52,981 bases of DNA from a virus, in the UHGV virus genome UHGV-1367038; one strand, given 5' to 3'. Below are positions 2,266 to 48,831 of the stretch, piece after piece (positions within the stretch are counted from its first letter, which is position 1; every line of letters starts with the position of its first letter). Under the pieces are notes generated by a model. That model was given only the letters and a program-made list of their open reading frames with translations. It made no database searches and was not told the origin of the DNA. The position numbers and the translations under genes were made by a program.

Positions 2266-2269
2266 TACT

Positions 2270-2291
2270 AACCCCGCTACGGCGGGGTTTA
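2270..2291 (+). terminator. Rho-independent terminator-like hairpin after J
   Basis: CCCCGC-tacg-GCGGGG followed by TTTAT. Confidence 0.5.
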
Positions 2292-2373
2292 TACATATAG
2301 TAAACACATATTCGTCTGCGTAATGACAAAACGTTAAAATAGTATGGTTAATTAACAAGATGGAGTCATTGCG

Positions 2374-9893: not shown

Positions 9894-9911
9894 TATGGAA
9901 TTACCTCATGT

Positions 9912-11030
9912 TTACAAAATGGAATATTCAGGGTAATAAACAAAGCGCCCAATTTCTCCATGAGCCGGGCTGTAAATAATCACCGCCGCCAGCCGCCGTG
10001 AACGCCAGCCGCCATTCGTCGAGTAAGCATCTTTGCCAGCTAACGTTCCGTGATACTCGACAACGCCTAACGATGATTCAATCAGCCGCTGGTGATGCCA
10101 GTGTCCGCAATGAGCGTAAACCGACGACGATTTACCGAAATCCTCCCGCCAGTCAGAAACACAGGCAGCAAGTAAGGTTTCTGGTTTTTTGATGGTGTGT
10201 CCGTGGTGGTAAGCAAGGAATGTTTTTCCGTATTGTGTGTGGTGGACGATAGCAGGGGACACATCAACCGTTACGCGCGGTTCATCTTCGTAAAAAGCCG
10301 CCAGCGCCGCACGTAGCCAAATCATCCCCGACTGATCGTGATTGCCGGATAACACCTGGATCTCGACGTCCTTATGGTTTAACAACATTTTCCCCACCGC
10401 ACGCCGGACCGACCGGATCGCCACATAAACAAGTTTTGCGTAGCGTGAATCGCAATCTAAGACGTGATTACTTGATGGCGTCACTGGTAATAGCCCGTCC
10501 GTGTGAAGCACATCACCGCCGAGAAGCAATACAGCTTTTTCAGACGTTGGTGCAGCGCCTACAGCGTAGTCAAAGAAGTCATTTAACACGCGTTCAGCGA
10601 TCCCGGTGTCGTAGCTTTCTCCGCATTCAGCTTTATGCGCAAGCGCCCCGATATGCAGATCGAATACCGGATAAAGGGCCAGGCTTTTCTGAAAATCAAT
10701 TTCCGGCACTGGCACGGCTTCCGCGCGCGGCATTTCTTCCGTAAATGCGTCACAAGCTGCCTGCATTAGCCTTTCCATTTCCTCACGGTCACGGGCCGTT
10801 TTAATCCAGCGCATGATTACATTGCCATCTTTATCAACGAGCAATGATTCACCATTGACACCAAAACCCGGCGCGCGGCGCGTGGATATTAAACCGCGTT
10901 TCGCCAGCCGTGCGCCCAGGCGCTCGACGTTGCGTTTTGCCATGCCGTACTTCTCAGCGATCTGTTTATACGTCAGGCCGCTGTTATGTTCAGCGATTAA
11001 TTCCTCATCGCTGATCTTTCTTTGTGACAT
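9912..11030 (-). CDS. HTH domain fused to calcineurin-like metallophosphoesterase (Mre11/SbcD-like motifs)
   Basis: N-terminal HTH (LTYKQIAEKYGMAKRNVERL); DLH, GGDVLH, GNHD, GHWHH motifs; start taken at ATG 11030 with GAGGA RBS (alternative 11045). Confidence 0.6.
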   Translation of the reverse strand: MSQRKISDEELIAEHNSGLTYKQIAEKYGMAKRNVERLGARLAKRGLISTRRAPGFGVNGESLLVDKDGNVIMRWIKTARDREEMERLMQAACDAFTEEMPRAEAVPVPEIDFQKSLALYPVFDLHIGALAHKAECGESYDTGIAERVLNDFFDYAVGAAPTSEKAVLLLGGDVLHTDGLLPVTPSSNHVLDCDSRYAKLVYVAIRSVRRAVGKMLLNHKDVEIQVLSGNHDQSGMIWLRAALAAFYEDEPRVTVDVSPAIVHHTQYGKTFLAYHHGHTIKKPETLLAACVSDWREDFGKSSSVYAHCGHWHHQRLIESSLGVVEYHGTLAGKDAYSTNGGWRSRRLAAVIIYSPAHGEIGRFVYYPEYSIL

Positions 11031-11159
11031 AACGTTATTCCTCATGTTTACAGAATGTATATTTATTTTCCGTAAAACGCGCTACAACGCAAAATCCCAC
11101 CGCGTAACCCACTTATAAGAGTGCAGTGTCTTTCTTGCGTCAGAGGCGCTATCAGGTGG

Positions 11160-11393
11160 CTATTTTTTGATTTTTAAGATGACATAAACGTTAGCTTGTT
11201 GGCGTCCATGCAATTTACTCCTGCAAATGGCTATTACTCCGGCCTGTTCCAGAGATCGGATCGCTAGCTTAACACTTTGCCGACTCACTCCCAACCTGTC
11301 AGCAAGCATGATAAGTGATATTTGATAACCTCCCGTCCGGCAATGCACAGCCAGCAGATCGTAAACTTTACGCTCAGTTTTGGTTAATTTCAT
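11160..11393 (-). CDS. Small winged-helix DNA-binding protein
   Basis: 77 aa; wHTH pattern LADRLGVSRQSVKLAIRSLEQAGVI. Confidence 0.5.
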   Translation of the reverse strand: MKLTKTERKVYDLLAVHCRTGGYQISLIMLADRLGVSRQSVKLAIRSLEQAGVIAICRSKLHGRQQANVYVILKIKK

Positions 11394-11520
11394 GAAAAGC
11401 CCTTAAACGCTCTATAACGAAGAAAACGCATTAAGCCAAGCAAGTCTAGCACTTGATATGTTTTATCGCGTTAGTGGCGCGTTTAAGTTGGTTATTTGGG
11501 GTTTTTGTGAAGCTTGGTAG

Positions 11521-12513
11521 TCAAAGAGCGCCAGCGCGGGTGTCGCGTAGCGTTTTTGGTTTTAGTAAGAAATCTAGTGTCGCAGTGAAGCCATTGCCGA
11601 AGTAAAAATCTGAGGCCGTATTTTTGAACGCTTCGAAGTAGCTGATAAAGCCTTTGATGCTTTTATCTTTCAGGTAGTCAGAGAACGCATAAATTTTACG
11701 TTCCAGATCCCGATCAAGTTCAGCAGGTGGTAACAGGCCATCAAACGTGCTGTTAAATGCTTCCACTACGTCGGCGGCGTTTACGGTAGCTGATAGCTTG
11801 CGCCATTGTTCAGCATCAGCCAGATACCCATCGAATTTAGTTACCCGGCAAATGTTAATAGGCTTAGGCACTCCACCACGACTACGCCATTGAGTCAAAG
11901 CCCATTCAATTACTAATGTGATCTCATCCTCCGTATATGCCTTACGTGTTTTTGTTTCTGTCAGTAGTTCGATAAATGGTTTTGCGTCACGACATTTGCA
12001 TCCTGCCTTGTCGTTGTAGAAGGCTAGGCAACGCAATGCTGCCAAATTAGCCGCCTGATCTTCTTCGCTAATAGGCCCGTCTTTTTCCAATACACGGAGT
12101 GTATTGTTTTTAATGTTCTCTTTACTGGTTATATATGACTGATTAGGGTGTCTCTCTGACACTACCCCCGGTGTCACAGTGACACTACCCTGGTGTCTCT
12201 CTGACACTACCCCCGGTGTCTCTCTGACACTACCCTGTAATGATGGTAAGACGATTACATAGAAGTTACTTGTTTGCTCTTTTCCTCCTATTAGATATCG
12301 AGGTTGCTTAATCAATAACCCTTTCTCACAAAGAGCATCAATAGCCCGCATAGCTGTGCTTTTGCCTATTTCGCATTGCTTTGCTATGTGCTGGTAAGAA
12401 GGGTAACATTCGCCGTTATCGTTAGCGTTATCAGCCAACTTTAACAGCACAAGTTTGTGCATTGGGTTGCCGACTTCAGTATGAAAGACTTCAACCATTA
12501 GCCGCATACTCAT
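11521..12513 (-). CDS. Replication initiator (lambda O-like, N-terminal HTH) containing origin iterons
   Basis: HTH (SYQHIAKQCEIGKSTAMRAIDALCEKGLL); four iterons inside the ORF; AGGAGG RBS before ATG 12513 (alternative 12519; listed start 12561 is TTG). Confidence 0.7.
   Translation of the reverse strand: MSMRLMVEVFHTEVGNPMHKLVLLKLADNANDNGECYPSYQHIAKQCEIGKSTAMRAIDALCEKGLLIKQPRYLIGGKEQTSNFYVIVLPSLQGSVRETPGVVSERHQGSVTVTPGVVSERHPNQSYITSKENIKNNTLRVLEKDGPISEEDQAANLAALRCLAFYNDKAGCKCRDAKPFIELLTETKTRKAYTEDEITLVIEWALTQWRSRGGVPKPINICRVTKFDGYLADAEQWRKLSATVNAADVVEAFNSTFDGLLPPAELDRDLERKIYAFSDYLKDKSIKGFISYFEAFKNTASDFYFGNGFTATLDFLLKPKTLRDTRAGAL
12147..12236. repeat. Four tandem ~22-bp iterons (GGTGTCTCTCTGACACTACCCC), candidate replication origin
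   Basis: Direct repeats each containing a GTGTC..GACAC palindrome; AT-rich segment on the gene-downstream side; inside O-like gene. Confidence 0.7.
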
Positions 12514-12821
12514 AAACATTGGCCTCCTATGGTTAAAATGAACGCGCGGGCGGGTATCCAATTAGCATTAGATAGCGGTGAGTGACCGCTTAACAGATCC
12601 CGCCGTTGCGTGATATTTGTCTTTCGCTTCGCAGCGACACCGGATTTTTAAAGAGCATGAGGTATGCGCCTTTTTGTGCTATTCCGTTATCTTTTTTCTT
12701 GCGTCTTTGCAACTATGGCCTTACCTTGTCTGCAAGTTTACAGAATGGAGTTTTTAGATCAAGACTTGAAAAATACATTTTGTGACTTGTATCAAACTTT
12801 TTGAGGTTATAGGGTAGCGAC

Positions 12822-13469
12822 ATGAAAACAAAATGGTATGACTTAGCAAAGCAGCTCATGCGAGCGCAAGGCATGAGCCAGGATTCACTCGCGGATCTCA
12901 TGGGGATAACTAAAGGCGGCCTGTCACACTGGCTTAACGGTCGCCGCGAGCCAAATCTTGAAGATATTGCGCGGATTATGCGGGCACTTGGTCGTCGGCA
13001 GTTCACTGTTACCCATGATGGAATGGTCATTGATGATTCTGTTTCTAACACGTTACCGGGAGCGCCGCAGCGTGATTTAGGCAGTTACCCGGTTGTTGAC
13101 TGGAAGGACACAGTAAACAATATGGAAGATACAAGGCGATCAACATTACCACACGTTACGACTAGCGTTATTTGTTCAGATGATAGTTACTGGCTGGTTG
13201 CTAAAGGTGAATCAATGAACGCGCCGCAGGGGTTGAGCATCCCTGCCGGGACGATGATACTTGTTGACCCACACGCGCCAGCTATCGATGGAAAGCTGGT
13301 TATAGCACAGCTTGAGGAAGGGCAAATACCGACGTTTAAACAGTTGATTATTGATGGAGGTCAAAGGCTTTTACGTTCGCTTAACCCGCTGTATCCACCA
13401 ATCCCCATGAATCCTGAATCGAAAATCATAGGCGTGGTGGTGGACGCGAAGATCGTAAACCTGCCATAA
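12822..13469 (+). CDS. cI: CI-like repressor (HTH plus S24 LexA-like peptidase domain)
   Basis: 215 aa; N-terminal XRE HTH; C-terminal AKGESM serine motif; ATG 8 nt after a TATAGG -10-like hexamer (possibly leaderless). Confidence 0.85.
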   Translation: MKTKWYDLAKQLMRAQGMSQDSLADLMGITKGGLSHWLNGRREPNLEDIARIMRALGRRQFTVTHDGMVIDDSVSNTLPGAPQRDLGSYPVVDWKDTVNNMEDTRRSTLPHVTTSVICSDDSYWLVAKGESMNAPQGLSIPAGTMILVDPHAPAIDGKLVIAQLEEGQIPTFKQLIIDGGQRLLRSLNPLYPPIPMNPESKIIGVVVDAKIVNLP

Positions 13470-13475
13470 AAAATT

Positions 13476-13500
13476 AGCCGCCGAATGGCGGCTTTTCTTT
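13476..13500 (+). terminator. Rho-independent terminator after cI
   Basis: AGCCGCC-gaat-GGCGGCT then TTTCTTT. Confidence 0.7.
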
Positions 13501-13593
13501 GCCCTGAAAACACCAAAACGTAAACATAAAACGTGTTTTATTATTTAAATATCAATGACATATAAAATATTTTAAAAAAGTATACAAAATGGA

Positions 13594-13622
13594 TTGACTC
13601 GGTGTATCACGGGGCGTATATT
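13594..13622 (+). promoter_or_regulatory. pL-like sigma70 promoter
   Basis: TTGACT - 17 bp - TATATT; TATACAAAATGGA motif abuts the -35. Confidence 0.55.
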
Positions 13623-13664
13623 TCGAGGCAAAGGAGGTAGCAAGGCAGGGGAAAGAAGGTTACT

Positions 13665-13702
13665 TGCTCTTTAACAATCTGGTCAGCCGCTGGAAGTGCG
13701 GC
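13665..13702 (+). promoter_or_regulatory. nutL-like site: boxA-like TGCTCTTTAAC plus boxB-like hairpin GCCGC-tggaagt-GCGGC
   Basis: Between pL-like promoter and N-like gene, spacing as in lambda nut sites. Confidence 0.4.
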
Positions 13703-13758
13703 AATTAATGAAGATGATTTTTATTAAGTATCATCATGGGATATAAGGAGATCAGATT

Positions 13759-14049
13759 ATGACCGTAACAATTATGTATGGCAAATGTGATAGCAAAATA
13801 AATGCCAGGGAACGCAGAAGAATAAAAAGAGAAAACGAAAGAAAATCATCACCTGCAATCAATAAAACTGACAATGTTGATAAAGCTATTCGTTTTGCAA
13901 ACGTAGAAAGATGCAAACCGAATGGCATTAAAGAGCATCGCAAAGGTGCGGCAAAATGGTATGCGGAAAACGAAAGCGGCAATTACTACCACGCAACACA
14001 ACCGCGTAGTCTAGGGGAAAAACCCCTGGATAAAGTACGCTACAGATAA
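13759..14049 (+). CDS. N-like transcription antiterminator
   Basis: 96 aa basic protein; N-terminal MTVTIMYGK..INARERRRIKRENERK resembles the P22/lambda N arginine-rich motif; AAGGAG RBS; first gene after pL-like promoter. Confidence 0.55.
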   Translation: MTVTIMYGKCDSKINARERRRIKRENERKSSPAINKTDNVDKAIRFANVERCKPNGIKEHRKGAAKWYAENESGNYYHATQPRSLGEKPLDKVRYR

Positions 14050-14079
14050 TACAAAATGTAAACTTTCAAAGGTGACATT

Positions 14080-14202
14080 ATGGTTGTTCAGGCGCTTCAA
14101 TTCAAACTGGCTGTAGCGGAAATGCTTCACGATGCCGAAATGTGGAGCACCGCGAATAAAGCTTTATATGTAGTGTTAACAGCGAGGGAGATTAAAGGGT
14201 GA
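14080..14202 (+). CDS. Small hypothetical protein (40 aa)
   Basis: AAAGGTGA RBS; stop overlaps GTG start of erf. Confidence 0.35.
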   Translation: MVVQALQFKLAVAEMLHDAEMWSTANKALYVVLTAREIKG

Positions 14203-14840
14203 AAACAGAATTACATAAAAAGCTGTGGACTATTCAGCAGACGCTGAATGCGCCGAAAAGTCAGCGCAATAATTTTGGCGGTTATAATTATCGTTCGGCA
14301 GAAGATATTTTAGAGGCTGTTAAACCACTGCTTCAAAATATCACTCTGACGGTAAGTGATGAAATCGTCTTAATTGGCGAACGCTATTACGTGAAAGCTA
14401 CGGCGACACTAAGTGACGGTGAGGACGCGATAGCGGTAACTGCTTACGCAAGGGAGGAAGATAATAAGAAGGGAATGGATGCAAGCCAGCTAACAGGAGC
14501 AACATCAAGTTACGCGCGGAAATATGCTTTGAACGGTTTATTCTGCATAGACGATGCAAAAGACGCGGATACTGATGCTTACAGTAAGCAGACAGGCCAG
14601 CAGCCTAGACAGCAGAAAAACCAGCCAAAACAACAACAGCAGAAGCAGAAAGCGCCGCCAAATCCTGATGAAGTGTTAGCGCGTTTCTGTGATGCAGCAG
14701 CGAAAGCGCCGGACGCTAACAAGTTGCGTGAAATATTCGGTAAATGCTGGAAATTACTGCCGGAAGGATCGGAACATCGAGTTAAAGCAAAAGATGTTTA
14801 TGACATCCGGATCGCAGAGCTTAATGGGGAGATGAGCTAA
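14199..14840 (+). CDS. erf: ERF-family single-strand annealing protein
   Basis: 213 aa; NFGGYNYRSAEDILEAVKPLL typical of Erf; GTG start. Confidence 0.7.
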   Translation: MKTELHKKLWTIQQTLNAPKSQRNNFGGYNYRSAEDILEAVKPLLQNITLTVSDEIVLIGERYYVKATATLSDGEDAIAVTAYAREEDNKKGMDASQLTGATSSYARKYALNGLFCIDDAKDADTDAYSKQTGQQPRQQKNQPKQQQQKQKAPPNPDEVLARFCDAAAKAPDANKLREIFGKCWKLLPEGSEHRVKAKDVYDIRIAELNGEMS

Positions 14841-15289
14841 TGAGTTTAAATTCAATCACGCTTGGCGGGAATATCGGAAACGACATGGAAGTACGCTATA
14901 CGCAAAACGGGAAGGCGATTGGTAGTTTTCCGTTAGCTGTAACGAATGGCTACGGCGATAATAAGCGGGTAATGTGGATCACTTGTCTGGTATTCGGTGA
15001 GCGTGCTGAAAAATTAGCGCCGCATATCCGCAAGGGTGGAAAGATAGTGGTAAGCGGTCGCCTGGATGTTCGGCAATATGACCGGAACGACGGCACGAAA
15101 GGAACGGCGGTAGAAGTGGCGGTTAATGAATTCGAGTTTTGCAGCAGGAATGACCAACAGCAACAACAGCAGAAAGCGCAACCGCAAAACAATAATGGAA
15201 ACTATCCACCGCCGGATGATTTCGATCCAGACATTCCGTTTAGTCCTGTGGGGTTGCAATATGGACGACACAGAATCTACGCGCTATAA
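14840..15289 (+). CDS. ssb: Single-stranded DNA-binding protein with C-terminal extension
   Basis: OB-fold N-terminus; Gln/Pro-rich linker; DFDPDIPF followed by 15 extra residues before the stop. Confidence 0.8.
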   Translation: MSLNSITLGGNIGNDMEVRYTQNGKAIGSFPLAVTNGYGDNKRVMWITCLVFGERAEKLAPHIRKGGKIVVSGRLDVRQYDRNDGTKGTAVEVAVNEFEFCSRNDQQQQQQKAQPQNNNGNYPPPDDFDPDIPFSPVGLQYGRHRIYAL

Positions 15290-15782
15290 ACGATGTTTTA
15301 AATGTGGGGCATTATTGCCCCTTTCTTGTTTCTATAAAAATAAACAAATGGCTGATGGTCACGTAAATAAATGCAAGGAATGCACAAAACGAGATGTTAG
15401 AGATAATTACAGGAAAAATAGAGAATATTACAAGGAATATGACAGAATAAGAGATCAGTCGGAAGAAAGAAAGGAGATGAAAAGAAAGTATATTCAAACC
15501 GAAAAAGGCAAGGAAGCACATAAAAGATGTTGCGATAAATGGCAGGAAAATAACCAGAAGAAAAGACACGCTGAAATAATGGTAGGAAATGCCATCCGTG
15601 ATGGCAAGCTGGTCAAACAACCTTGCGAAGTATGCGGAAGAAGCGAACGCGTTCACGCTCACCATTGCGATTATGATAAGCCGTTAGACGTTATGTGGCT
15701 TTGTCCTATTTGCCATCGAGCGTGGCACAATGAGCATGGTGAAGGAGCCAACGCACATGACGAGGTGGTTAGCGATGGGTGA
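15261..15782 (+). CDS. HNH endonuclease with zinc-finger motifs
   Basis: CFKCG, CEVCG, HAHHCDYDKPLDVMWLCPICHRAWH; start at ATG 15261 inside SSB 3' end. Confidence 0.6.
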   Translation: MDDTESTRYKRCFKCGALLPLSCFYKNKQMADGHVNKCKECTKRDVRDNYRKNREYYKEYDRIRDQSEERKEMKRKYIQTEKGKEAHKRCCDKWQENNQKKRHAEIMVGNAIRDGKLVKQPCEVCGRSERVHAHHCDYDKPLDVMWLCPICHRAWHNEHGEGANAHDEVVSDG

Positions 15783-16053
15783 TTATTTAAAACAGCCACC
15801 GCCACCGCGAACAAAAGAGCAAGTACTAAAAGAAGCCCGTGATCAAATCGATCGCGGGTTTTTTATTACTGGCAGTTCGGCTGAACGGATGGCGAGAAGA
15901 TTTAGTGACCTGTACGCAAAGCAAATCTGGTTTGACAACTGGCAAGCGAGTTTTTACCCGCTACAGAAAACTGATGATATGCATTGGCCTGAATATGTCG
16001 ATCCACGTATGCGCAAATATCGCGGGCGTATGGGCCAGGTTATTAACGATTAA
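15775..16053 (+). CDS. Hypothetical protein
   Basis: GAGGTGG RBS; 92 aa. Confidence 0.5.
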   Translation: MGDYLKQPPPPRTKEQVLKEARDQIDRGFFITGSSAERMARRFSDLYAKQIWFDNWQASFYPLQKTDDMHWPEYVDPRMRKYRGRMGQVIND

Positions 16054-16067
16054 TGAGGTATTAAATC

Positions 16068-16292
16068 ATGGTCGAAGATAAAGAAGTCGATAAAGAAATG
16101 CCGGACGGTGCTGATGATCTTATTACTTTTAGCGGTGGTTTGTATGAATTCGAAACGTCTGCGGGTTGGCATGATCACTGGCACTTTCCAACGCGCAAGG
16201 AATTAAGCGAACGTAAATCATTTGGCGAAGATGCCGAACGTCTGGCTAATAACAAATGGCTTGATAAATTCATTGCGGAGGCTGAAAAATGA
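16068..16292 (+). CDS. Hypothetical acidic protein
   Basis: 74 aa ORF. Confidence 0.5.
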   Translation: MVEDKEVDKEMPDGADDLITFSGGLYEFETSAGWHDHWHFPTRKELSERKSFGEDAERLANNKWLDKFIAEAEK

Positions 16293-16402
16293 ATTTTGCA
16301 AAAATTGCAGCACTGGCTGCGGCGGTGGCGGTGGCTGCGCTATATCTTAGCCTATCGCTTTATATCACTGTGGCGATCATCAAGCTGATTACAACTATGT
16401 GA
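16289..16402 (+). CDS. Small membrane peptide (37 aa)
   Basis: ATGA overlap with upstream stop; MNFAKIAALAAAVAVAALYLSLSLYITVAIIKLITTM. Confidence 0.4.
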   Translation: MNFAKIAALAAAVAVAALYLSLSLYITVAIIKLITTM

Positions 16403-16409
16403 GGCAATC

Positions 16410-16532
16410 ATGAGAGTCAGTAAGGATATTGTGACGGTCGCATTTTGCGTTATTTGCTTCCTGTTTACTGTTATATTTTGCGGAGCACTTGCTGCGGTAG
16501 TGGCCTTTATTGGTAAGGGGGTGATGCTATGA
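16410..16532 (+). CDS. Small membrane peptide (40 aa)
   Basis: GAGG RBS; MRVSKDIVTVAFCVICFLFTVIFCGALAAVVAFIGKGVML; stop overlaps next start. Confidence 0.4.
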   Translation: MRVSKDIVTVAFCVICFLFTVIFCGALAAVVAFIGKGVML

Positions 16533-16801
16533 CTCCGTGGAATGCAAAGGCTGGTGATCTGGTTGTGCTTCCTGCATATCGTAGCGATCCAGGTCTTGTT
16601 GTGCTGAATAAATCATGTATAGAAATTGAACGCCCGATCCTGGTTAAGTACTTGGATGGAACAATTATAGAGCCTATTTTCTTTGACAAGATTGAGCTAA
16701 AGGCACGCAATGTTCGCGTTAAGCCGTTCCGGGCTTATGTTGAAAACCACTGGCGGCGGTTATTCGCCGGACTTAATGGGATGTTCGGAGTATGGCTATG
16801 A
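16529..16801 (+). CDS. Hypothetical protein
   Basis: 90 aa ORF, translationally coupled. Confidence 0.5.
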   Translation: MTPWNAKAGDLVVLPAYRSDPGLVVLNKSCIEIERPILVKYLDGTIIEPIFFDKIELKARNVRVKPFRAYVENHWRRLFAGLNGMFGVWL

Positions 16802-16983
16802 AATTAGTGAAGGTAAAAGACCTGAAAGGCGGCGAAAGATTAATGTCGTGGTTCGGGTATGAATTTATTGCTACTGACTTTTATTTCGGCCCTGGTGGGC
16901 AGGTAACAATATTCGATGAAGATTACGACGAGGTAGGACAATGGCATCTTGATCAATATGTCGAGGTGTTAAATGAAAATTAA
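16792..16983 (+). CDS. Hypothetical protein
   Basis: 63 aa ORF; GGAG RBS. Confidence 0.45.
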   Translation: MAMKLVKVKDLKGGERLMSWFGYEFIATDFYFGPGGQVTIFDEDYDEVGQWHLDQYVEVLNEN

Positions 16984-17305
16984 ATTCCATAAGTCATATG
17001 ATAGCAAGACGAACAAGCTATCTCTATTCATTGAATTCGAGCGCAGGATCGTGGTTGTGCCTTATTCGCGGCGTTTCAATGACGCTGGCGGGCGGCGACA
17101 GTTCGCGTTAGATATGCTGTTACGCGGATGTGGTCTTATGCGCCCGCTATCTGATTTAAAACGAATGATGCCGGGATCGTTCGGTCAGATTGATGAAATA
17201 GAAATAAGCCCGGAAGAACTGAAACGGGAGCGTGATTTATTCCTTTCAAGCGAAGGAAGCCCGTTCAATTCAGAAACTGAAATGAAATGGCATCATCCAC
17301 TATAA
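16973..17305 (+). CDS. Hypothetical protein
   Basis: 110 aa ORF. Confidence 0.5.
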   Translation: MKIKFHKSYDSKTNKLSLFIEFERRIVVVPYSRRFNDAGGRRQFALDMLLRGCGLMRPLSDLKRMMPGSFGQIDEIEISPEELKRERDLFLSSEGSPFNSETEMKWHHPL

Positions 17306-17316
17306 GGATAAATATC

Positions 17317-17937
17317 ATGAACGACGTCAAAACAGCTTATTCACTCGGCAGCGAAGGCATGTTAATCACTCGCTACACTGAAGACGCCAGCTTTCACGAA
17401 GTGTTAACTAAGGACTATCACGAAGTTATTAAAGATATGGATGCAGGCGTGTATGACGGTGATTTAAACCTGGCGCTACAGGTTGTTGACATTGTGATGG
17501 ATGCATCAATCCGCGATTACGTGTCTTTAAGCGCGGAAGAAAAAATATCGGTAGCACGTTACGTGTTCTGCCTCACTTTTGTGAAACGCATGGAGGAAGA
17601 ATTCGGGCGAGTACCAGTGCCGGAAGATCTGGACCCGCTTGCACATGGTAGCGCGGTAATGGTCCCGCTGGGCGACGGGGTGATGGGAAGTGCTTCATTG
17701 CATACAATCCGCGGACTGATGCGAGATGTGCTTGAGGATGGAGCACTTAAGAAAGCGGTAGAAGACGGTCGCGACGAGGAAGAATTTAAAAAATTCATGC
17801 CTGCTATTTATGGCGATATGGTCGGCGATAACATGCGTGCTAATGATTTCGGTGTTCAGTGCGTCATGGCTGTACTTAATGATGCCAGAAAACGTGCACA
17901 GCCAATGCCGAAACAGGAAAAACGTGTACTACATTAA
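17317..17937 (+). CDS. Hypothetical protein
   Basis: AAGGA RBS before ATG 17317; 206 aa. Confidence 0.55.
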   Translation: MNDVKTAYSLGSEGMLITRYTEDASFHEVLTKDYHEVIKDMDAGVYDGDLNLALQVVDIVMDASIRDYVSLSAEEKISVARYVFCLTFVKRMEEEFGRVPVPEDLDPLAHGSAVMVPLGDGVMGSASLHTIRGLMRDVLEDGALKKAVEDGRDEEEFKKFMPAIYGDMVGDNMRANDFGVQCVMAVLNDARKRAQPMPKQEKRVLH

Positions 17938-17940
17938 CAG

Positions 17941-18008
17941 CGTGATTGCGATCACATAAATATACATTTTGTATTGTGATCGCATATCCGTTTTGTAAAC
18001 TGAAATCG
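17941..18008 (+). promoter_or_regulatory. Conserved intergenic element: CRP-like palindrome cGTGA-N6-TCACA plus ATCCGTTTTGTAAAC block
   Basis: About 65-bp element shared with 21509..21576; lies 30-95 bp upstream of the next ATG. Confidence 0.45.
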
Positions 18009-18035
18009 AAAGGTTTACGACACGGAGGAAACAAG

Positions 18036-18254
18036 ATGGAACGCGAATTGATGCTCTACTGCGTAGAATGTGGCGTAGGTCATGATGCCTACGTCGCCGG
18101 GAAAAGCTATCCAGCCGATGAAGTGCTTTCTAATATGCACTTTAGAGAAAACGAATTTCAAATATCAGTATGGAAGCGATGCATTGATGGAATTGAGGTC
18201 GTTAGCCTTGAAAGATATTTAGGTAAATTCGACTACGGATTAATGGAGGCTTAA
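18036..18254 (+). CDS. Hypothetical Cys-containing small protein
   Basis: GGAGG RBS; MERELMLYCVECGVGHDAY. Confidence 0.5.
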   Translation: MERELMLYCVECGVGHDAYVAGKSYPADEVLSNMHFRENEFQISVWKRCIDGIEVVSLERYLGKFDYGLMEA

Positions 18255-18256
18255 CA

Positions 18257-18349
18257 ATGGACGACGCATTGTTATTCATGTGCATTTGCTGGGGATTTAT
18301 TGCTTTATGCTTATTTGTAAGATGGTTTATTGAATATCATATGAGGTGA
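18257..18349 (+). CDS. Small membrane peptide (30 aa)
   Basis: GGAGG RBS; MDDALLFMCICWGFIALCLFVRWFIEYHMR. Confidence 0.4.
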   Translation: MDDALLFMCICWGFIALCLFVRWFIEYHMR

Positions 18350-18352
18350 TGT

Positions 18353-18547
18353 ATGGAACAGGAAACTGATTACAGAATACCTGAAAACCTAAAGTTGGTA
18401 GGCATTGGTTTTGATTGTAGTTTTGTATCTGACGCAAACGGGGCGATTTATTTAGTGCGCATCATTGATGGCGTTCAGCATATAAGAAGGCTAGGACTTT
18501 ACATCAAAGCATTCAGAAGAGGTTATTTAAAAGCTCATGAAGTTTAA
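18353..18547 (+). CDS. Hypothetical protein
   Basis: 64 aa ORF. Confidence 0.45.
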   Translation: MEQETDYRIPENLKLVGIGFDCSFVSDANGAIYLVRIIDGVQHIRRLGLYIKAFRRGYLKAHEV

Positions 18548-18740
18548 ACACTATAAAGAATGGAAAATTCCAGAATCAGCAACAAAGGCAGCGCCAGGAA
18601 ATTTTTCTGGAGTTTATTTTTATATGGATGGCAAATGGTATTTCGGCAGCAGGCCGGATCACTATTATCAGGAAATATGCAAGACGCACGTATGGGATAT
18701 TAAAGAGCGTGTGAAAGATGGGGTGATCGAGGACGTTTAA
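18537..18740 (+). CDS. Hypothetical protein
   Basis: 67 aa ORF. Confidence 0.45.
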   Translation: MKFKHYKEWKIPESATKAAPGNFSGVYFYMDGKWYFGSRPDHYYQEICKTHVWDIKERVKDGVIEDV

Positions 18741-18741
18741 A

Positions 18742-18978
18742 ATGATTAAGAGCTTTTTTAACTGGTTGGGAGCGTGGATTTTATCCACGTTTTTTGTTTT
18801 CATGGCGTTCATGGCTGTTATCACTGTTATCATGCTTGGCGCTATGTTTATTACGTGGTCGCTGCCTGAATTTAACGAAATAGGCGATATCCTTGCCGCA
18901 GGTCGCGCTTTATTAACGGTTAGCGCATTTATCGGGTTTTGCTGGGCTGCCGCGCCAGATTGGGATGATCCTTTTTAA
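18742..18978 (+). CDS. Hypothetical membrane protein
   Basis: 78 aa; two predicted TM segments. Confidence 0.5.
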   Translation: MIKSFFNWLGAWILSTFFVFMAFMAVITVIMLGAMFITWSLPEFNEIGDILAAGRALLTVSAFIGFCWAAAPDWDDPF

Positions 18979-18980
18979 TT

Positions 18981-19214
18981 ATGGCTTTATTCAACATGTC
19001 AGAGCCGCAATTCAACGCCGTTAAAAATGCCGCCCGCGCGGCGCTTTCTGCCTGCAAAACTGAGGTGGAAAGAAACGGCTATAGCGATAAAGCCACGCGG
19101 CTGATACTCGACGAGCATTATCGCAAGGTCGCCCCGCTAATCAGCATTGAGCGTTTCGTGTGGTTGGTGGGGTATATGAATAACAGATGGGGAACTGATC
19201 AGGATTATTTCTAA
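18981..19214 (+). CDS. Hypothetical protein
   Basis: 77 aa ORF. Confidence 0.5.
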   Translation: MALFNMSEPQFNAVKNAARAALSACKTEVERNGYSDKATRLILDEHYRKVAPLISIERFVWLVGYMNNRWGTDQDYF

Positions 19215-19223
19215 GGGGGCGTA

Positions 19224-19763
19224 ATGAAAAATGATTTCGGCGGTAGCCATACGCCGCAGGAAATTAAAGACCTATGGCAAACGCCTAAGCCTGTCTTTAG
19301 AGGAATGGATCGGGAATTCGAATTCGTCGCGGATGTGGCGGCAAACAAGGCAAATGCATTAGTTCCGCGATATATAACCGAAGAAATGGACACACTACAT
19401 TATCCATGGGGAGCGGTGGCGATGCCTGGTGAATATGTCTGGATGAATCCACCATATTCTAATCCTGGGCCATTCGTTGATAAAGCGGCGCTGGAACATC
19501 ATCGAAACCATATCGGATGCGTAATGTTATTGCCCGCTGACATTTCTGTTAACTGGTTTATGAACGGCGTGGAGACGGCAAACGAATGCCGTTTAATCAC
19601 GCGCGGGCGACTGGCGTTTATCAATGCCGCGACTGGTAAACCAGTAAGCGGAAACAATAAAGGGAGCTTATTCTTGATCTGGCATCCACGATGCAGACAT
19701 GAATGTATTTTCACGCAGATAACACGTAAAGAGCTATATGCAAGAGGTGCAGAAAATGAGTAA
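19224..19763 (+). CDS. dam: Phage N6-adenine DNA methyltransferase (Dam-like)
   Basis: 179 aa; NPPY catalytic motif (VWMNPPYS). Confidence 0.7.
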   Translation: MKNDFGGSHTPQEIKDLWQTPKPVFRGMDREFEFVADVAANKANALVPRYITEEMDTLHYPWGAVAMPGEYVWMNPPYSNPGPFVDKAALEHHRNHIGCVMLLPADISVNWFMNGVETANECRLITRGRLAFINAATGKPVSGNNKGSLFLIWHPRCRHECIFTQITRKELYARGAENE

Positions 19764-20247
19764 AGCGGCTGAATTGCTAAGACTTGCGGCTGAAACTATT
19801 GAAGCAAGAGGGGAACAAAACGGATACGATCGAAAAGAAGAAAAATCAGCGCCAAAAATAGCCACTATTTACAACGCTAAGAAGGGGACAAATCTAACCA
19901 CGCTTGATGTATGGGATCTACTAATTTGTCTCAAGGAGGCGCGATTAGAGGCCATTTTAAGCAATGGTAGCGACCCGCTCGATACTCTTATAGACCTTAT
20001 TGCTTATAACGCGCTAAAAGCGGAGCAAATATTAACGGAGCGGGAGGAAGAACAAAGAAAGAAACAGGCTGTTTTTGATATGCCGTTAAATTGCGGCTGT
20101 AAGAAAGCCTCAATACCTGGCGACCTGATCGCCAGTGGTGAAGTAACGCTAAATGATAGCTTCCTACTTGATAACGGCTGGCGGTTTAATAAAGAGGCTT
20201 TATTGTATACACCGAAGGATCATAAAGATGGAAAGGGTGATGATTGA
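19756..20247 (+). CDS. Hypothetical protein
   Basis: GAGG RBS; 163 aa. Confidence 0.5.
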   Translation: MSKAAELLRLAAETIEARGEQNGYDRKEEKSAPKIATIYNAKKGTNLTTLDVWDLLICLKEARLEAILSNGSDPLDTLIDLIAYNALKAEQILTEREEEQRKKQAVFDMPLNCGCKKASIPGDLIASGEVTLNDSFLLDNGWRFNKEALLYTPKDHKDGKGDD

Positions 20248-20731
20248 CAGGTTATTAGCCTGCGTTTATGTCGCCGTTTTCGTTATCATCAATCTTATTG
20301 TTAATCACTGCGGCCCGTGGGTAATTCCGATCACCACGGTAGCCGCCGTGTATGTCAATATGATGATCCGTGACTTCCTGTTATATGACGGCGGCCTGAA
20401 ATGGTCGGCTACAACATGCGCCGCCGCTGGCGCAATCACGGTGCTGATAAACTACGATGCCGGAATGGTGGCGATTGCGTCATTCGTCGCGGTTGTTTCC
20501 GGTGCGCTTATTTCTGGCGGTGTTTACAGGATTTTACCTGGCGATTTCGACTCAAAACGCTGGCCTGCGAATATAGCGTCAGCCATTGGCGATTCGTTAA
20601 TTTTCCCCACGCTATCGTTTATGGCATTCATGCCGGAAATATCAGCTATGCAATTCATCTCAAAAATGGCAGCGGTAACGGTGATCACTATCATCATGCG
20701 CCGCTACTTTACATTCGAGGGTAGGAAATGA
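20228..20731 (+). CDS. Integral membrane protein; weak resemblance to YhhQ/DUF165 transporter family
   Basis: Multiple hydrophobic segments; RW...AS..G..D..F..F.AF pattern near C-terminus; family assignment is speculative. Confidence 0.5.
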   Translation: MERVMIDRLLACVYVAVFVIINLIVNHCGPWVIPITTVAAVYVNMMIRDFLLYDGGLKWSATTCAAAGAITVLINYDAGMVAIASFVAVVSGALISGGVYRILPGDFDSKRWPANIASAIGDSLIFPTLSFMAFMPEISAMQFISKMAAVTVITIIMRRYFTFEGRK

Positions 20732-21486
20732 GTGGGCTTAGAAATTGGGTGGTGTGGTCGCTGTACGACGGCAGCGGATACGCCGTTAAAGATTGGGCCG
20801 ACGCTGGTTATAAATGCTATTGCTTCAACTATGATGGCGCTAATCACGGCGATTATGAAGGCGTCAAAATCATTCATCCGAACATTGAGTATGTCAACGT
20901 ATGGATTGACAGCCATTTCCTGGTGATGTTCTCCCCTGAATTGTCTGTATATCCAGATCCTGACATTATTTTGGCCTTCCCGCCGTGCGACGATCTCGCT
21001 GTTTCCGGCGCTCGCTGGTTTGCTGATAAGCGGAAAAAAGATCCTCACTTTCAGGATAAGGCAGCGTATAACGCAAAACTGGTGGAAACGCTGGCTGACA
21101 TGTACCACGTGCCGTGGATGGTGGAAAATCCGGTGGGCGCACTGTCAACGTTATGGCGTAAACCGGATTTTATCTTTAATCCGTGCGCTTACGGTGGTTA
21201 TCTGCCTGAAGATGATGAACATCCATCTTTCCCGGATGTTTACCCTCCGCGCGACGCGTATACGAAGAAGACTTGTATCTGGTGTGGTAACGGATTTAAA
21301 CAGCCTCTTTTTAGACCTGTAGATCTTAACTCTGATGATAACCCTGGCTGGGCGAAAACAGGAGGCAGGACGAAAAGGACTAAGATGATCCGCTCGCTAA
21401 CGCCGCGTGGATTCGCCAGAGCTGTATTCCTGGCTAACGACCGGGCAATCACGAGGACTACTCTTAACCGCGTTTTACCGGATTGA
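20728..21486 (+). CDS. DNA cytosine-5 methyltransferase-like protein (short form)
   Basis: FPPCDDLAVSG resembles C5-MTase motif IV (PPCQxFSxAG); ENPVG resembles motif VI (ENV); DGSG motif I-like. Confidence 0.45.
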   Translation: MSGLRNWVVWSLYDGSGYAVKDWADAGYKCYCFNYDGANHGDYEGVKIIHPNIEYVNVWIDSHFLVMFSPELSVYPDPDIILAFPPCDDLAVSGARWFADKRKKDPHFQDKAAYNAKLVETLADMYHVPWMVENPVGALSTLWRKPDFIFNPCAYGGYLPEDDEHPSFPDVYPPRDAYTKKTCIWCGNGFKQPLFRPVDLNSDDNPGWAKTGGRTKRTKMIRSLTPRGFARAVFLANDRAITRTTLNRVLPD

Positions 21487-21508
21487 TGTTTACAAAATGG
21501 CGTCATTG

Positions 21509-21576
21509 TGTGATGAGGATCACATAATGGCGCTTTATTGCTTGTTCGCATGTATCCGTTTTGTATACTTCAAACA
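21509..21576 (+). promoter_or_regulatory. Conserved intergenic element: perfect CRP-consensus palindrome TGTGA-N6-TCACA plus ATCCGTTTTGTATAC block
   Basis: TGTGATGAGGATCACA at 21509..21524; homologous to 17941..18008. Confidence 0.5.
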
Positions 21577-21647
21577 AACAAAATGCTCTTTAAAAATCCG
21601 GTAACGCTGAAATGCGTAAAAATCACCTGAAAAAAGGAGAGAGCATT

Positions 21648-21824
21648 ATGCCTTTTGAGAATTACCAATGGCATGACGACTATGAGAGAGAAAGTGTCAT
21701 GCGTGCAATGTGCAATGTATGTAGCACTAAGAAAGGAGAATGTAACGAGTGCAACGAATGCGTAGATCGCTTGCTAAGGGCAGGACACGCCGAAAGGCTG
21801 AACGAAACAGAGAATCAAAAATAA
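21648..21824 (+). CDS. Small Cys-rich (zinc-finger-like) protein
   Basis: GGAGAG RBS; CNVCSTKKGECNECNEC. Confidence 0.5.
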   Translation: MPFENYQWHDDYERESVMRAMCNVCSTKKGECNECNECVDRLLRAGHAERLNETENQK

Positions 21825-21838
21825 TCGGGGTGGTTTTT

Positions 21839-27763: not shown

Positions 27764-27782
27764 ATGTGATCTACCCCGCAAA

Positions 27783-27826
27783 GTTTACAAAATGGCATTG
27801 TTCCGGCAGTGCCATTTTGTTATAAA
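27783..27826 (+). promoter_or_regulatory. Conserved inverted-repeat element ACAAAATGGCA-N12-TGCCATTTTGT followed by TATAAA
   Basis: Homologous to elements at 44124..44166 and 47170..47217. Confidence 0.45.
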
Positions 27827-43951: not shown

Positions 43952-44123
43952 TTTCTTATCCTCTTTTGCTTCCTCCGGTTTATCCGGCCTTTTAAAATCC
44001 TTTTCCTGCTTCCTTAGTTTTAGGGGATTTCGCCTCCCTCGTTCCTTCGGTTAGCTGGGCTTCAAGTCTCAATCCTTTATATCCTTCGACCTTCTTTTCC
44101 CTCTCTCATCCTTCACCTTCTTT

Positions 44124-44166
44124 ATACAAAATGGAGTCGTTGAAGTGAAGCCATTTTGTATAAAAT
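44124..44166 (+). promoter_or_regulatory. Conserved inverted-repeat element TACAAAATGG-N16-CCATTTTGTA followed by TATAAAAT
   Basis: Near-identical to 47170..47217; lies between moron cassette 1 and tape measure gene. Confidence 0.5.
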
Positions 44167-47126: not shown

Positions 47127-47169
47127 AACATCCCCCTTTGCGTAACGTCTTTCTCATTTGCTTTCTGTA

Positions 47170-47217
47170 TACAATATGGAGTTCATAAAGTGAAGCCATT
47201 TTGAAAACTGGTTATAA
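47170..47217 (+). promoter_or_regulatory. Conserved inverted-repeat element TACAATATGG-N16-CCATTTTG followed by TATAAT
   Basis: Homolog of 44124..44166; near-CRP site TGTGA-N6-TCTCA at 47222..47237. Confidence 0.5.
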
Positions 47218-47293
47218 TTCCTGTGATGAATGTCTCATTTTTCGCGTAGAATCGCGTAAAGATATATACAAAATGTAACTTATAGGGGGTTTT

Positions 47294-48755: not shown

Positions 48756-48831
48756 TTTGTTGACCTCCTTCCGTTTGAGTAAAATATACATATTGTAAAA
48801 ACCGAGATCAATCCATTTTGGTATGATTTAG

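Follow-up and report, generated by a model that had tools for sequence, protein, structure and literature searches.

A short sequence recurs at gene junctions and around promoters of the virus genome UHGV-1367038 (52,981 nucleotides, hereafter 'the window'), which raises the question of whether a protein binds it and, if so, which one. With ~85% identity to phages mEp021 and mEp010, the window is a temperate coliphage of the mEpimmI group, whose own paper states that operators 'may' differ from those of lambda (PMC11893012). A literature search for the motif sequence returned nothing relevant. The explanation proposed here, a probable one based on sequence comparison, is that the motif serves as operator for the CI-type immunity repressor encoded by the phage itself, a protein with an HTH_3 head and a self-cleaving S24 tail.

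The recurrence of this 13–15-bp sequence is genuine. Its core 10-mer TACAAAATGG occurs six times exactly (0.22 expected under a third-order Markov model) and 21 times with at most one mismatch (5.3 expected under that model), and comparison with dinucleotide shuffles, the check called for by the original prediction, gave 28 matches to the 13-mer with at most two mismatches against 6.0 ± 2.2, a count reached in no shuffle. K-mer counts made with no prior also recovered it, with ACAAAATG as the second commonest 8-mer and TACAAAATG and ACAAAATGG as the commonest 9-mers of the window. The five copies listed earlier were all found within 1 nt of their coordinates (9911-9923, TTTACAAAATGGA; 11047-11059, TTTACAGAATGTA; 12737-12749, TTTACAGAATGGA; 13581-13593, TATACAAAATGGA; 21489-21501, TTTACAAAATGGC), and copies were indeed present inside three inverted-repeat elements, each of 12-16-12 layout (27784-27823, 44123-44162 and 47168-47207). 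Copies at 27784, 44123, 47168, 47265 and 48785/48810 extend the motif beyond the range first described. In total, 19 strong copies in 11 intergenic clusters were mapped with a position weight matrix that was trained on the same sites and is thus circular for the top matches. By a crude ORF map, 15 of the 19 centres fall in non-coding DNA, which makes up 18% of the window (P about 1e-8); by inspection, all 19 sites lie between genes or on a stop codon, in agreement with the gene-junction location claimed originally. The two orientations are about equally frequent among them (8 to 8).

The best reading of the individual copies is a 15-bp pseudo-palindrome, T(A/T)TACA-AAA-TG(G/T)nnn. Conservation at homologous junctions was found both for the 9911 site, which is kept in relatives while its left flanks vary, and for the 11047 junction, where the opposite-strand reading is TATACA-TTC-TGTAAAC in the window and TATACA-AAA-TGTAAAC in relatives, the centre being flipped and the dyad kept. 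In the element that precedes the tape-measure gene, compared across ~30 variants, the outer halves are always TATACA and the inner ones vary among TGGAGT, TGTATT, TGTATA, TGTACT and CGGTAT.

The immunity region harbours the following features:

12822..13469, plus strand: CI-type immunity repressor gene, the proposed binder (215 aa; Pfam HTH_3 at residues 10-57, Peptidase_S24 at 112-207)
13581..13595, plus strand: strong pL site TATACA AAA TGGATT, at positions -48 to -34, its last 2 nt overlapping the -35
13606..13620, minus strand: weak second pL site TATACG CCC CGTGAT, over the -10 TATATT, 25 bp from the strong site
13594..13622, plus strand: pL-like promoter TTGACT-17-TATATT, then nutR1 boxA at 13665-13674
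12737..12751, plus strand: cI-O gap site TTTACA GAA TGGAGT, covering the -10 (TAAACT, 12740..12735) of a leftward PR-like promoter
12772..12786, minus strand: second cI-O gap site GTCACA AAA TGTATT (15.4 bits), 35 bp from the first
12735..12762, minus strand: putative leftward PR-like promoter TTGATC-16-TAAACT, upstream of nutL boxA (12657..12648), a consensus match only

The repressor is 98% identical to that of mEp021, with ITKGGLSHWLNG as its predicted recognition helix. Sites lie on promoter elements either side of its gene, as had been claimed for both immunity-region promoters, and the 13581 copy does adjoin the -35 of the pL-like promoter. The string AAAAAAGTATACAAAATGGATTGACT, spanning this site and the -35, is invariant in 34 non-redundant relatives, in which the -35/-10 spacer varies, and GGGCGTATATT of the weak pL site is conserved in relatives. 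On the other side, the 12737 site is conserved in 27 non-redundant relatives (positions 7 and 13 being free) and ACATTTTGTGAC of the 12772 site is invariant in relatives; the PR-like promoter was missed by a stricter promoter scan. As the cI-O gap holds two sites, not three, and no HTH_3 cro gene is present next to cI in the window, the switch differs from the classical one.

Elsewhere in the genome, the sites and associated features are:

9911..9925, plus strand: single site at the junction of the 371-aa and helicase genes, overlapping a stop codon, 18 nt before the helicase ATG
11047..11061, plus strand: single near-perfect palindrome TTTACA GAA TGTATA, upstream of the 371-aa gene
14048..14062, plus strand: single site AATACA AAA TGTAAA, overlapping the N-like gene stop
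17961..17975, minus strand: AATACA AAA TGTATA, first site of a direct pair with 24-bp spacing
17985..17999, minus strand: TTTACA AAA CGGATA, second of this pair, covering a rightward -10-like TAAACT (17996-18001)
21489..21503, plus strand: TTTACA AAA TGGCGT, just past the methyltransferase gene and ahead of a hairpin (21499-21534)
21553..21567, minus strand: TATACA AAA CGGATA, covering the -10 TATACT (21564-21569) of a putative promoter, 15 nt before nutR2 boxA
21542..21569, plus strand: putative third early promoter TTGTTC-16-TATACT, feeding nutR2 (boxA 21584-21593), a consensus match only
27784..27823, no strand assigned: inverted pair at 25-bp spacing, flanked by small genes downstream of Q, with a stable hairpin (-20.5 kcal/mol)
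44123..44162, no strand assigned: inverted pair at 25-bp spacing, in the gap where a minus-strand gene island and the tape-measure gene diverge
47168..47207, no strand assigned: inverted pair at 25-bp spacing, in the gap where a ParE-like island and a tail gene diverge, with no stable hairpin
47265..47279, plus strand: single site TATACA AAA TGTAAC, 15 nt before the tail gene start at 47294
48785..48824, minus strand: direct pair 25 bp apart, on the tool-found leftward promoter TTGATC-17-TATATT (48811..48783) of a third minus-strand island

This dispersed layout is conserved, as mEp010 carries 18 sites at syntenic places. For the 21542 promoter, mEp010 and mEp021 retain CTTGTTC and TGTATACT but vary in the intervening and upstream sequence.

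Five pairs of sites, direct or inverted, are spaced 24–25 bp centre to centre, and in four of them a -35 hexamer lies in the gap and a -10 under the downstream site, which is the pL register. pL and the three leftward island promoters share one arrangement: a site, a -35 starting from its last 2 nt, a 17-nt spacer and a -10 under the second site (TTCACT-17-TATAAA in the 44123 element and TTCACT-17-TATACA in the 47168 element, for example). Two of the four, pL and 48811..48783, were found independently by a promoter tool; the other two, from the inverted repeats of the tail region, have -10 hexamers (TATAAA, TATACA) that do not end in the customary T. The region holds 18 promoter-like matches, no more than shuffles do (21.9), so that individual promoter calls are weak.

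Near distant HTH_3+S24 repressor homologs (37–55% identity, similar recognition helix) in unrelated prophages, dyads of the form (T/A)ATACA-N3-YGTAT(A/T) were found. In six independent loci with repressors 37-51% identical, each 92-114-bp cro-cI gap holds exactly three, for example TATACATTTTGTATT, TATACGTTATGTGTC and TATACAGCTTGTATC in L178, and TATACATATCGTATT, TATACATATTGTGTC and TATACAAAACGTATA in L180; L177 and L180 have further sites downstream of the repressor gene, followed in L177 by a boxA-like CGCTCTTTAAC. No such dyads were found in a P22-C2-type control locus. Locus L175, whose repressor is 55% identical with the same helix and has Erf and SSB downstream, repeats the pL layout of the window: two sites 25 bp apart, the second (TATACGCCTTGTGAT) resembling the weak pL site, and then a boxA-like GCTCTTTAAC. 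It also has TATACAAAACGTATA at the place equivalent to the 14048 site, and additional sites precede an antirepressor-like gene. Between repressor classes, the half-sites differed too little to reveal co-variation of helix and site. Since the dyads accompany repressor homologs in unrelated prophages, the motif is very probably the repressor's operator; of the 'host or phage factor' suggested originally, it is the phage factor that is supported.

That the repressor binds these sites and represses by binding we infer from their sequence and placement, as we do the reality of the consensus promoters and any role of single sites. One dimer would occupy each 15-bp site through a strong outer half, TATACA, and a weaker second half, and two dimers would cooperate in filling a pair 24-25 bp apart, bracketing the -35 and covering the -10 so that the promoter is shut in the lysogen. 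Unusually, and unlike in lambda, the putative operators are scattered over ~11 places and not limited to pL and the leftward PR-like promoter, which flank the repressor gene. They also occur (i) on the apparent third early promoter, just upstream of nutR2; (ii) as the internal pair at 17961-17999 and in the 27784 element; and (iii) at the promoters of the three minus-strand islands that interrupt the tail genes. At four gene junctions, single sites may stop read-through transcription or anchor repressor-mediated loops.

An unlikely alternative is that another phage regulator mainly binds the sites, with or instead of CI: either a Cro-like lytic repressor, as lambda Cro shares the operators of CI (PMC4488713), or a winged-helix protein of the leftward operon (a 77-aa MarR-like protein, 11160-11393, or the 371-aa protein, 9912-11027). 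The lack of an HTH_3 cro beside cI is consistent with this, as are the three wHTH proteins encoded by the leftward operon and the two single sites directly upstream of its genes. Moreover, AAA-TGG is kept in 13 of the 19 sites and the weak half is constrained in both the window and L175, suggesting a constraint that is not obviously explained by a symmetric CI dimer and that could reflect a second protein sharing the sites. However, across the six other loci the dyad goes with the CI homolog irrespective of the neighbours, which differ (HTH_3 cro, CP76, Rha/ANT, helicase), a MarR-type gene is absent from their gene listings, and the sites are placed where CI operators sit.

It is improbable that the motif is primarily a module-boundary linker, conserved as a crossover point for cassette exchange (for example by the phage's Erf recombinase). 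As a description of location the term is apt: mEp010 homology ends at the 9911 motif and mEp021 homology just past the 11047 motif; the 27784, 44123 and 47168 elements are similarity islands with unrelated DNA on one or both sides (27784, homologous to mEp010, has non-homologous flanks); the site upstream of the 371-aa gene is joined to at least four different left flanks among relatives; and the tape-measure element is adjoined by several different gene islands. Yet dyad symmetry, 24-25 bp pairing, the fixed -35/-10 register and the recurrence of this dyad between cro and cI in unrelated prophages are left unexplained, and such breakpoints are expected as a by-product of regulatory sites heading exchangeable gene cassettes, of which the linker is a side effect.

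We give equally little credence to a host-factor site or generic promoter part, namely a proximal UP element (contacted by the RNA polymerase alpha subunit, -37 to -48), a -35-like TTTACA or a -10-like TGTATAAA. The motif abuts the -35 at five promoters, with its A-tract where the UP element consensus has the proximal subsite; reverse copies supply -10-like hexamers (TAAACT, TATACT, TATAAA), and CRP-like dyads lie beside five clusters. Nevertheless, copy-to-copy identity (six exact 10-mers) is far above what an UP element or hexamer needs, no -10 was seen by inspection at a consistent 16-18 nt after TTTACA, and single copies occur without a nearby promoter. A host factor is further made unlikely by the dyad travelling with repressor homologs annotated from different host genera (Citrobacter, Enterobacter and Serratia).

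The original description of a translation-initiation junction holds for two copies and not for the motif in general, as only two occurrences of TGTAAACATGAGG exist (9904-9916 and 11040-11052, minus strand). An RNA-level signal, acting in translation initiation or processing at junctions or as hairpins or bidirectional terminators in the inverted repeats, is highly improbable. In its favour, the two TGTAAACATGAGG-N-ATG junctions are identical, the 27784 (z -4.9) and 44123 (-17.8 kcal/mol, z -5.8) elements fold, the 27784 homolog was called a terminator by the mEp010 annotators and a predicted terminator (21499-21534) overlaps the 21489 copy with its A-tract and stem. Against it, the 47168 element lacks a fold (-8.1 kcal/mol, z -0.6), the direct pairs 17961/17985 and 48785/48810 cannot form hairpins, and all three keep the 24-25 bp spacing without one. 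An RNA-level role is also opposed by the motif facing either way relative to transcription and lying upstream of promoters, including the one that the pL copy abuts.

Among known systems, lambda OR/OL offers a direct comparison for the proposed CI operator. In lambda, OR1 and OR2 are 24-25 bp apart centre to centre, and at lambda-type operators CI dimers bind with pairwise cooperativity. The window shares this spacing of adjacent sites, a repressor with an HTH head and S24 self-cleaving tail, dyad-like sites on the -35/-10 of the divergent early promoters that flank the repressor gene, and nut sites downstream of those promoters (PMC11893012); it differs in site length (15 versus 17 bp), in its two cI-O gap sites 35 bp apart without an adjacent HTH_3 cro, and in having ~19 sites in 11 clusters genome-wide where lambda has six at two loci. 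The repressor of the Stx phage 933W, which represents a homologous class, is described as binding a 15-bp site with rotational symmetry about the central base pair, an invariant A4-C5 and little specificity at the centre and position 1 (PMC3317979); this description matches T1-A2-T3-A4-C5-A6 of the window. By the same description, 933W differs in its five sites, at OR and OL only, and a repressor reported as non-cooperative. VT2-Sakai-type Stx phages, with a repressor 38% identical to that of the window, carry AATACA-N3-TGTACT dyads in the cro-cI gap. The CB repressors of the enterobacterial prophages N15 and phiKO2 likewise have related palindromic sites at more than one promoter, three at OR and two at OL upstream of repA (PMC4488713); with five sites at two loci only, they are no precedent for the dispersal seen here. 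In dispersal the window resembles mycobacteriophage L5 with its operators and stoperators, although these are truly asymmetric 13-mers oriented with transcription, each bound by a repressor monomer that carries two DNA-binding domains, whereas the window has pseudo-dyads in mixed orientation and a lambda-type HTH_3+S24 repressor. As in L5, where the short repressor site occurs >20 times, at the early promoter and in intergenic gaps genome-wide (PMC9283540), the sites of the window are spread over intergenic clusters throughout the genome, four of which are single junction sites without a recognisable promoter.

The recurrent motif that the original prediction placed at gene junctions and in both immunity-region promoters was recovered in full, each listed copy being found no more than 1 nt from its predicted position. 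Its over-representation was likewise borne out: the 13-mer form, at up to two mismatches, has 28 matches in the window versus 6.0 ± 2.2 in shuffled sequences, its core TACAAAATGG occurs exactly six times versus 0.22 expected, and ACAAAATG, TACAAAATG and ACAAAATGG ranked at or near the top in an unbiased count of all 8- and 9-mers. Among 20 copies aligned in motif orientation, the information is confined to a 13-14-nt block, (G)T[T/A]TACAAAATGG[A/C], and the flanks beyond it have nothing in common. The 19 strong copies, mapped by a position weight matrix trained on those same sites, form 11 clusters from 9911 to 48824, and every copy is intergenic or on a stop codon (P about 1e-8 for the intergenic placement, using a crude ORF map). 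A third copy at 44177-44191 was dropped, as it is not kept in relatives. The proposed coincidence with translation-initiation junctions holds for two copies, at the junction string TGTAAACATGAGG, and fails for the motif generally, since that string exists only twice. The ribosome-binding regions of the helicase and 371-aa genes (9893-9925 and 11027-11061) are near-duplicates across about 27 nt, reading TGTAAAC-[A/C][T/G]GAGG-N-ATAAC-N-T[T/A]ATG with a site at the 5′ edge of each, which suggests a duplicated 'site + SD + start' cassette.

Positions 9000-22000 of the window share 84-86% identity with the coliphages mEp010, mEp021 and mEp515 of the 'mEpimmI' group. The temperate phages of this group are non-lambdoid, depend on Nus and occur in human gut samples about as frequently as lambdoid phages; they have a CI-lambda-like repressor (Rep021), three nut sites (nutL, nutR1 and nutR2) and, as antiterminator, the N-like Gp17 (PMC11893012). 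Their repressor was the subject of genetic tests, yet its operators were left undefined, being stated merely as ones that 'may' differ from those of lambda (PMC11893012). The corresponding features of the window are as follows, the nut coordinates being based on boxA matches and on the published description (PMC11893012).

Immunity region and early operons of the window
12822-13469, plus strand: repressor gene
Left of the repressor gene: leftward replication operon (O-like, 77-aa wHTH, 371-aa wHTH protein, helicase)
Right of the repressor gene: rightward operon (N-like, Erf, SSB, methylases, Q-like, then late genes)
12657..12648, minus strand: nutL boxA, exact TGCTCTTTAA
13665: nutR1 boxA, exact TGCTCTTTAA
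21584: nutR2 boxA, exact TGCTCTTTAA

The repressor combines an N-terminal HTH (HTH_3, 4.9e-13) with a C-terminal S24 (LexA-like) domain for self-cleavage and oligomerisation (Peptidase_S24, 3.6e-19), as in lambda-type CI. Several other features of the layout were noted. A fourth exact boxA TGCTCTTTAA lies at 13928-13937 (minus), antisense within the N-like gene; a promoter-like match on the minus strand (14105..14077) and the single site at 14048 both lie upstream of it. The group is described as having just three nut sites. Inside the O-like gene, 12140-12235 holds direct repeats of GGTGTCTCTCTGACACTACCC-like sequence, also among the top 12-mers, apparently iterons of the type usual in a lambda-like replication origin that lies in its initiator gene. 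Two large plus-strand ORFs of 713 and 591 aa (124-4149), by their position putative tail-fibre genes, precede a 404-aa ORF (4775-5989) taken as the putative integrase; as the mEp010 and mEp021 records begin with the integrase, the window would be circularly permuted with respect to them. Between these two large ORFs, a terminator-like hairpin is followed by a weaker pair of sites (2290-2304 and 2352-2366; 12-14 bits).

The centre flip at one junction, the drifting inner halves of one element and the 24-25-bp pairs changed the reading of the motif from an asymmetric 13-mer to a 15-bp pseudo-dyad. Ahead of the 371-aa gene, the junction is TATACA-TTC-TGTAAAC in the window and TATACA-AAA-TGTAAAC in many relatives, so that the outer TATACA...TGTAnA is constant while the centre is flipped. 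The element ahead of the tape-measure gene was seen in about 30 variants, all with the same outer TATACA halves, whereas the inner halves (TGGAGT, TGTATT, TGTATA, TGTACT, CGGTAT) approach a perfect TATACA-AAA-TGTATA palindrome in some and depart from it in others. The dyad is close to perfect at 11047, 17961 and 48785, and the model TATACA-N3-TGTATA has the two-fold symmetry that fits a dimer. Within the window, whose sites were defined from its own paralogous copies, A4-C5 of the strong half is present in 17 of 19 sites, and the second half is mostly weak and non-random (AAA-TGG kept in 13 of 19); because of these weak second halves, the cI-O gap of the window itself gives no match to a strict dyad WATACRNNNYGTATW at up to two mismatches. 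Under the 15-bp model, five pairs are spaced 24-25 bp centre to centre (17968/17992, 27791/27816, 44130/44155, 47175/47200 and 48792/48817). Two are direct and three inverted, and the same spacing whatever the orientation is as expected of independent, roughly symmetric units. The OR1-OR2 spacing of lambda is 24 bp. The pair spacing, about 2.3 helical turns, fits cooperative binding.

The sites also keep a register with promoter elements; the promoter assignments are consensus-level matches, and promoter-like matches in the region show no enrichment over shuffles. At pL, the rightward promoter after the repressor gene (13594..13622, located by tool), the strong site ends within the -35, TATACAAAATGGA/TTGACT-17-TATATT, and the -10 is covered by a weak half-site, TATACGCCCCGTGAT, 25 bp from the strong one. 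The leftward PR-like promoter in the cI-O gap, upstream of nutL (TTGATC-16-TAAACT, recognized by consensus match only), has its -10-like TAAACT under a site, so that the repressor gene has a site-bearing early promoter on either side. Among 27-34 non-redundant relatives, the pL site and its -35 are invariant, the -35/-10 spacer drifts, and both sites of the cI-O gap are conserved. Three leftward promoters in the pL register head minus-strand gene islands among the tail genes, and a further element is close to it; TATAAA and TATACA, the -10 hexamers of two of the leftward promoters, are without the usual final T.

Promoter-like elements in or near the pL register
44162..44121, leftward island promoter: TTCACT-17-TATAAA, pL register
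47207..47166, leftward island promoter: TTCACT-17-TATACA, pL register
48824..48783, leftward island promoter: TTGATC-17-TATATT, pL register, located by tool
27784 element: TTGTTC-17-TATAAA, pL register shifted by 1 nt

In the 21542-21593 region, a rightward TTGTTC-16-TATACT has TATACT under a site, 15 nt ahead of the nutR2 boxA, and nutR2 may thus serve its own repressor-controlled promoter and not just transcripts arriving from pL. This promoter-like match directly follows a hairpin at 21499-21534. TTTACA as a -35 hexamer in its own right was rejected by inspection, as a downstream -10 occurs at no consistent distance.

Two side observations concern the same promoters. CRP-like dyads (TGTGA-N6-TCACA, at most one mismatch) number eight in the window versus 1.7 expected.

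CRP-like elements
12781-12796: dyad beside operator cluster
17941-17956: dyad beside operator cluster
21509-21524: dyad beside operator cluster
47222-47237: dyad beside operator cluster
48832-48847: dyad beside operator cluster
27762-27775: half-site
44170-44185: half-site

All five dyads adjoining clusters contain GATC, with arms kept in relatives; the phage encodes a Dam-type methylase, and cAMP-CRP or methylation may provide an input to these promoters. The perfect dyad at 21509-21524 doubles as the stem of the predicted terminator 21499-21534. In addition, the first gene of the second tail-region island (46872-47126, minus) encodes a ParE-like toxin domain (PF24732, 2.2e-10), and its predicted promoter bears paired sites.

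The evidence that decides in favour of a probable operator is comparative. Searching with the repressor identified L064-L066, viral loci with a repressor that shares 37% identity overall and is much closer in the HTH head; each has a 112-bp cro-cI gap with three sites (TATACATAAAGTAGA, TATACATTTTGTCTG and TATACATAACGTATA in L066), the sites of L064 and L066 differing solely in the centre of the middle one. A protein search added homologs at 41-55% identity with recognition helices of the classes TKGGLSHW (the window and homolog P0008), TKGAVSHW, SKGAVGHW, TQGGxGHW and P22-C2-like SNAAISQW, and gene contexts were examined for representatives. Exactly three dyads occupy the cro-cI gap of each of L177, L178, L179 and L180 (six of six loci, including L064 and L066), while the P22-C2-type control has none and carries its own P22-style repeats instead. 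Extra sites lie downstream of the repressor gene in L177 and L180, followed in L177 by a boxA-like CGCTCTTTAAC.

The cousin of the window, L175/L176, has Erf and SSB downstream and a classical HTH_3 cro; the L175 repressor is 55% identical to that of the window, with the same recognition helix. Its pL has the geometry of the window, TATACAAAATGGT-a-TTGCAT-16-TATAGT with TATACGCCTTGTGAT 25 bp off (the spacing also found at OL of L180) and then a boxA-like GCTCTTTAAC; a perfect TATACAAAACGTATA follows the N-like gene. Two further strong sites of this locus, TATACAAAATGGAGT and TATACAAAATGGCTT (1054-1110), lie upstream of a Rha/ANT-type antirepressor-like gene, which suggests that the L175 repressor directly controls an antirepressor.

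The intergenic DNA around these dyads, judged by eye, seems not to be alignable with that of the window; thus the shared dyad seems to have been kept by function. The dyad follows the repressor gene across genomes. As ATACA is common to all classes, no co-variation of helix and half-site was demonstrable among them. The dispersed layout is conserved in mEp010, where 18 sites of at least 14 bits occupy syntenic places. Species-representative bacterial genomes scanned with the repressor alignment gave no match, and no contig location was found for homolog P0029. A viral-collection scan with TACAAAATGGATTGACT gave 57 loci, among which non-mEpimmI matches came at about the chance rate for a 17-mer and are uninformative; that with TACAAAATGG-N16-CCATTTTGTA matched solely the homologous element upstream of the tape-measure gene. 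A literature search with the motif's four 12-mer forms matched nothing but primers or genes of eukaryotes.

The motif is thus most probably the operator of the phage's CI-type repressor. Where the original prediction had proposed a host or phage factor, the tracking of the repressor gene by the dyad upholds the phage factor and speaks against the host one. We infer repressor binding, repression and the promoter assignments. Two dimers would fill a site pair and shut the promoter bracketed by it. Apart from pL and the PR-like promoter, the sites would pick out what appears to be a third early promoter, one that feeds nutR2 and would explain the extra nut site of the group, together with the internal pair 17961-17999, the 27784 element and the three tail-region island promoters.

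That a second phage regulator shares or owns the sites is improbable, even with no HTH_3 cro adjoining the window's cI, three wHTH proteins encoded by the phage, and the AAA-TGG of the weak half left unexplained by a symmetric dimer. The suggestion of module-boundary linkers was sound as to the location of several copies, since homology breakpoints between mosaic relatives fall at or beside 9911, 11047, 27784, 44123 and 47168; as an explanation it is very unlikely, for it accounts neither for the dyad symmetry, the 24-25-bp pairs and the fixed promoter register nor for the dyads in cro-cI gaps of unrelated loci. We consider it no more credible that the motif is a host-factor site or UP element: a position of -37 to -48 would suit one, but the sequence identity among copies and the single copies without a promoter would not, and the dyad travels with the repressor gene across host genera. 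To our knowledge, the motif fits none of the E. coli consensus sequences of IHF, Fis, CRP, TyrR, CpxR, OmpR, ArcA, EvgA, KdpE, NarL and the LacI family, nor the LexA box. A role in RNA, as hairpin or terminator, is extremely unlikely: the copy at pL precedes the promoter that it adjoins, orientation is mixed, direct pairs cannot fold yet share the spacing of inverted ones, and a stable hairpin with a U-tract is not common to the elements. Of the three inverted repeats, just two form a stable fold (-20.5 and -17.8 kcal/mol), that at 47168 remaining unfolded (-8.1 kcal/mol, z -0.6), and no intrinsic terminator was called by the tool at 27784-27823, 44123-44162 or 47168-47207; the 21499-21534 hairpin is a separate feature between two sites.

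The operator assignment provides an immediate map of probable repressor targets. One prediction from it is a third early promoter under repressor control, which would account for the need for a third nut site, and another is that the gene islands in the tail operon are repressor-regulated rather than constitutive lysogenic-conversion genes; one island of the window encodes the ParE-like toxin, and exclusion lipoproteins have been reported in relatives. Moreover, it opens up an E. coli system in which to study whether genome silencing by a dimeric lambda-type repressor can proceed via many scattered sites, a mode hitherto studied mainly in actinobacteriophages.

In comparison with known systems, the window resembles lambda OR/OL in its HTH + S24 repressor, its dyads on early promoters and its pair spacing; however, lambda CI operators are confined to two loci, whereas the sites of the window (and of mEp010) are not (19 in 11 clusters in the window). 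[quoted passage not shown] The putative lambda-type operators are newly assigned for this phage group, and their layout is unusually dispersed. Compared by described architecture, the proposed site of the window matches that of the 933W repressor, which is 15 bp, rotationally symmetric about the central base pair and invariant at positions 4-5 (A, C) (PMC3317979); that repressor belongs to the same broad family. VT2-Sakai-type Stx phages have a cI 38% identical to the window repressor and AATACA-N3-TGTACT dyads in the cro-cI gap. Separately, the VT2-Sakai locus (L182; AP000363.1 10224-12259) encodes at about 701-850 an HTH of the window repressor family upstream of the annotated cI start, interrupted in its recognition helix by an in-frame stop (MT*GGIGHW); this stretch precedes the start of cI as annotated in the deposited record.

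Mycobacteriophage L5 has over 20 operators/stoperators in promoters and short intergenic gaps (PMC9283540), and the window likewise has many copies of the probable repressor site in short intergenic gaps genome-wide. The L5 site, however, is asymmetric and bound by a monomeric two-domain repressor (PMC9283540), as against a pseudo-dyad and an HTH_3 + S24 protein, by inference a dimer, in the window; orientation follows transcription in L5 and is mixed in the window (about 8 forward to 8 reverse). A tentative and rather doubtful extension is that an SOS-cleavable lambda-type CI would act as a genome-wide silencer, through three nut-equipped early promoters, three tail-island promoters and single junction sites serving as stoperator-like roadblocks or loop anchors. 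If true, this would represent convergence with L5, using dimer-binding dyads.
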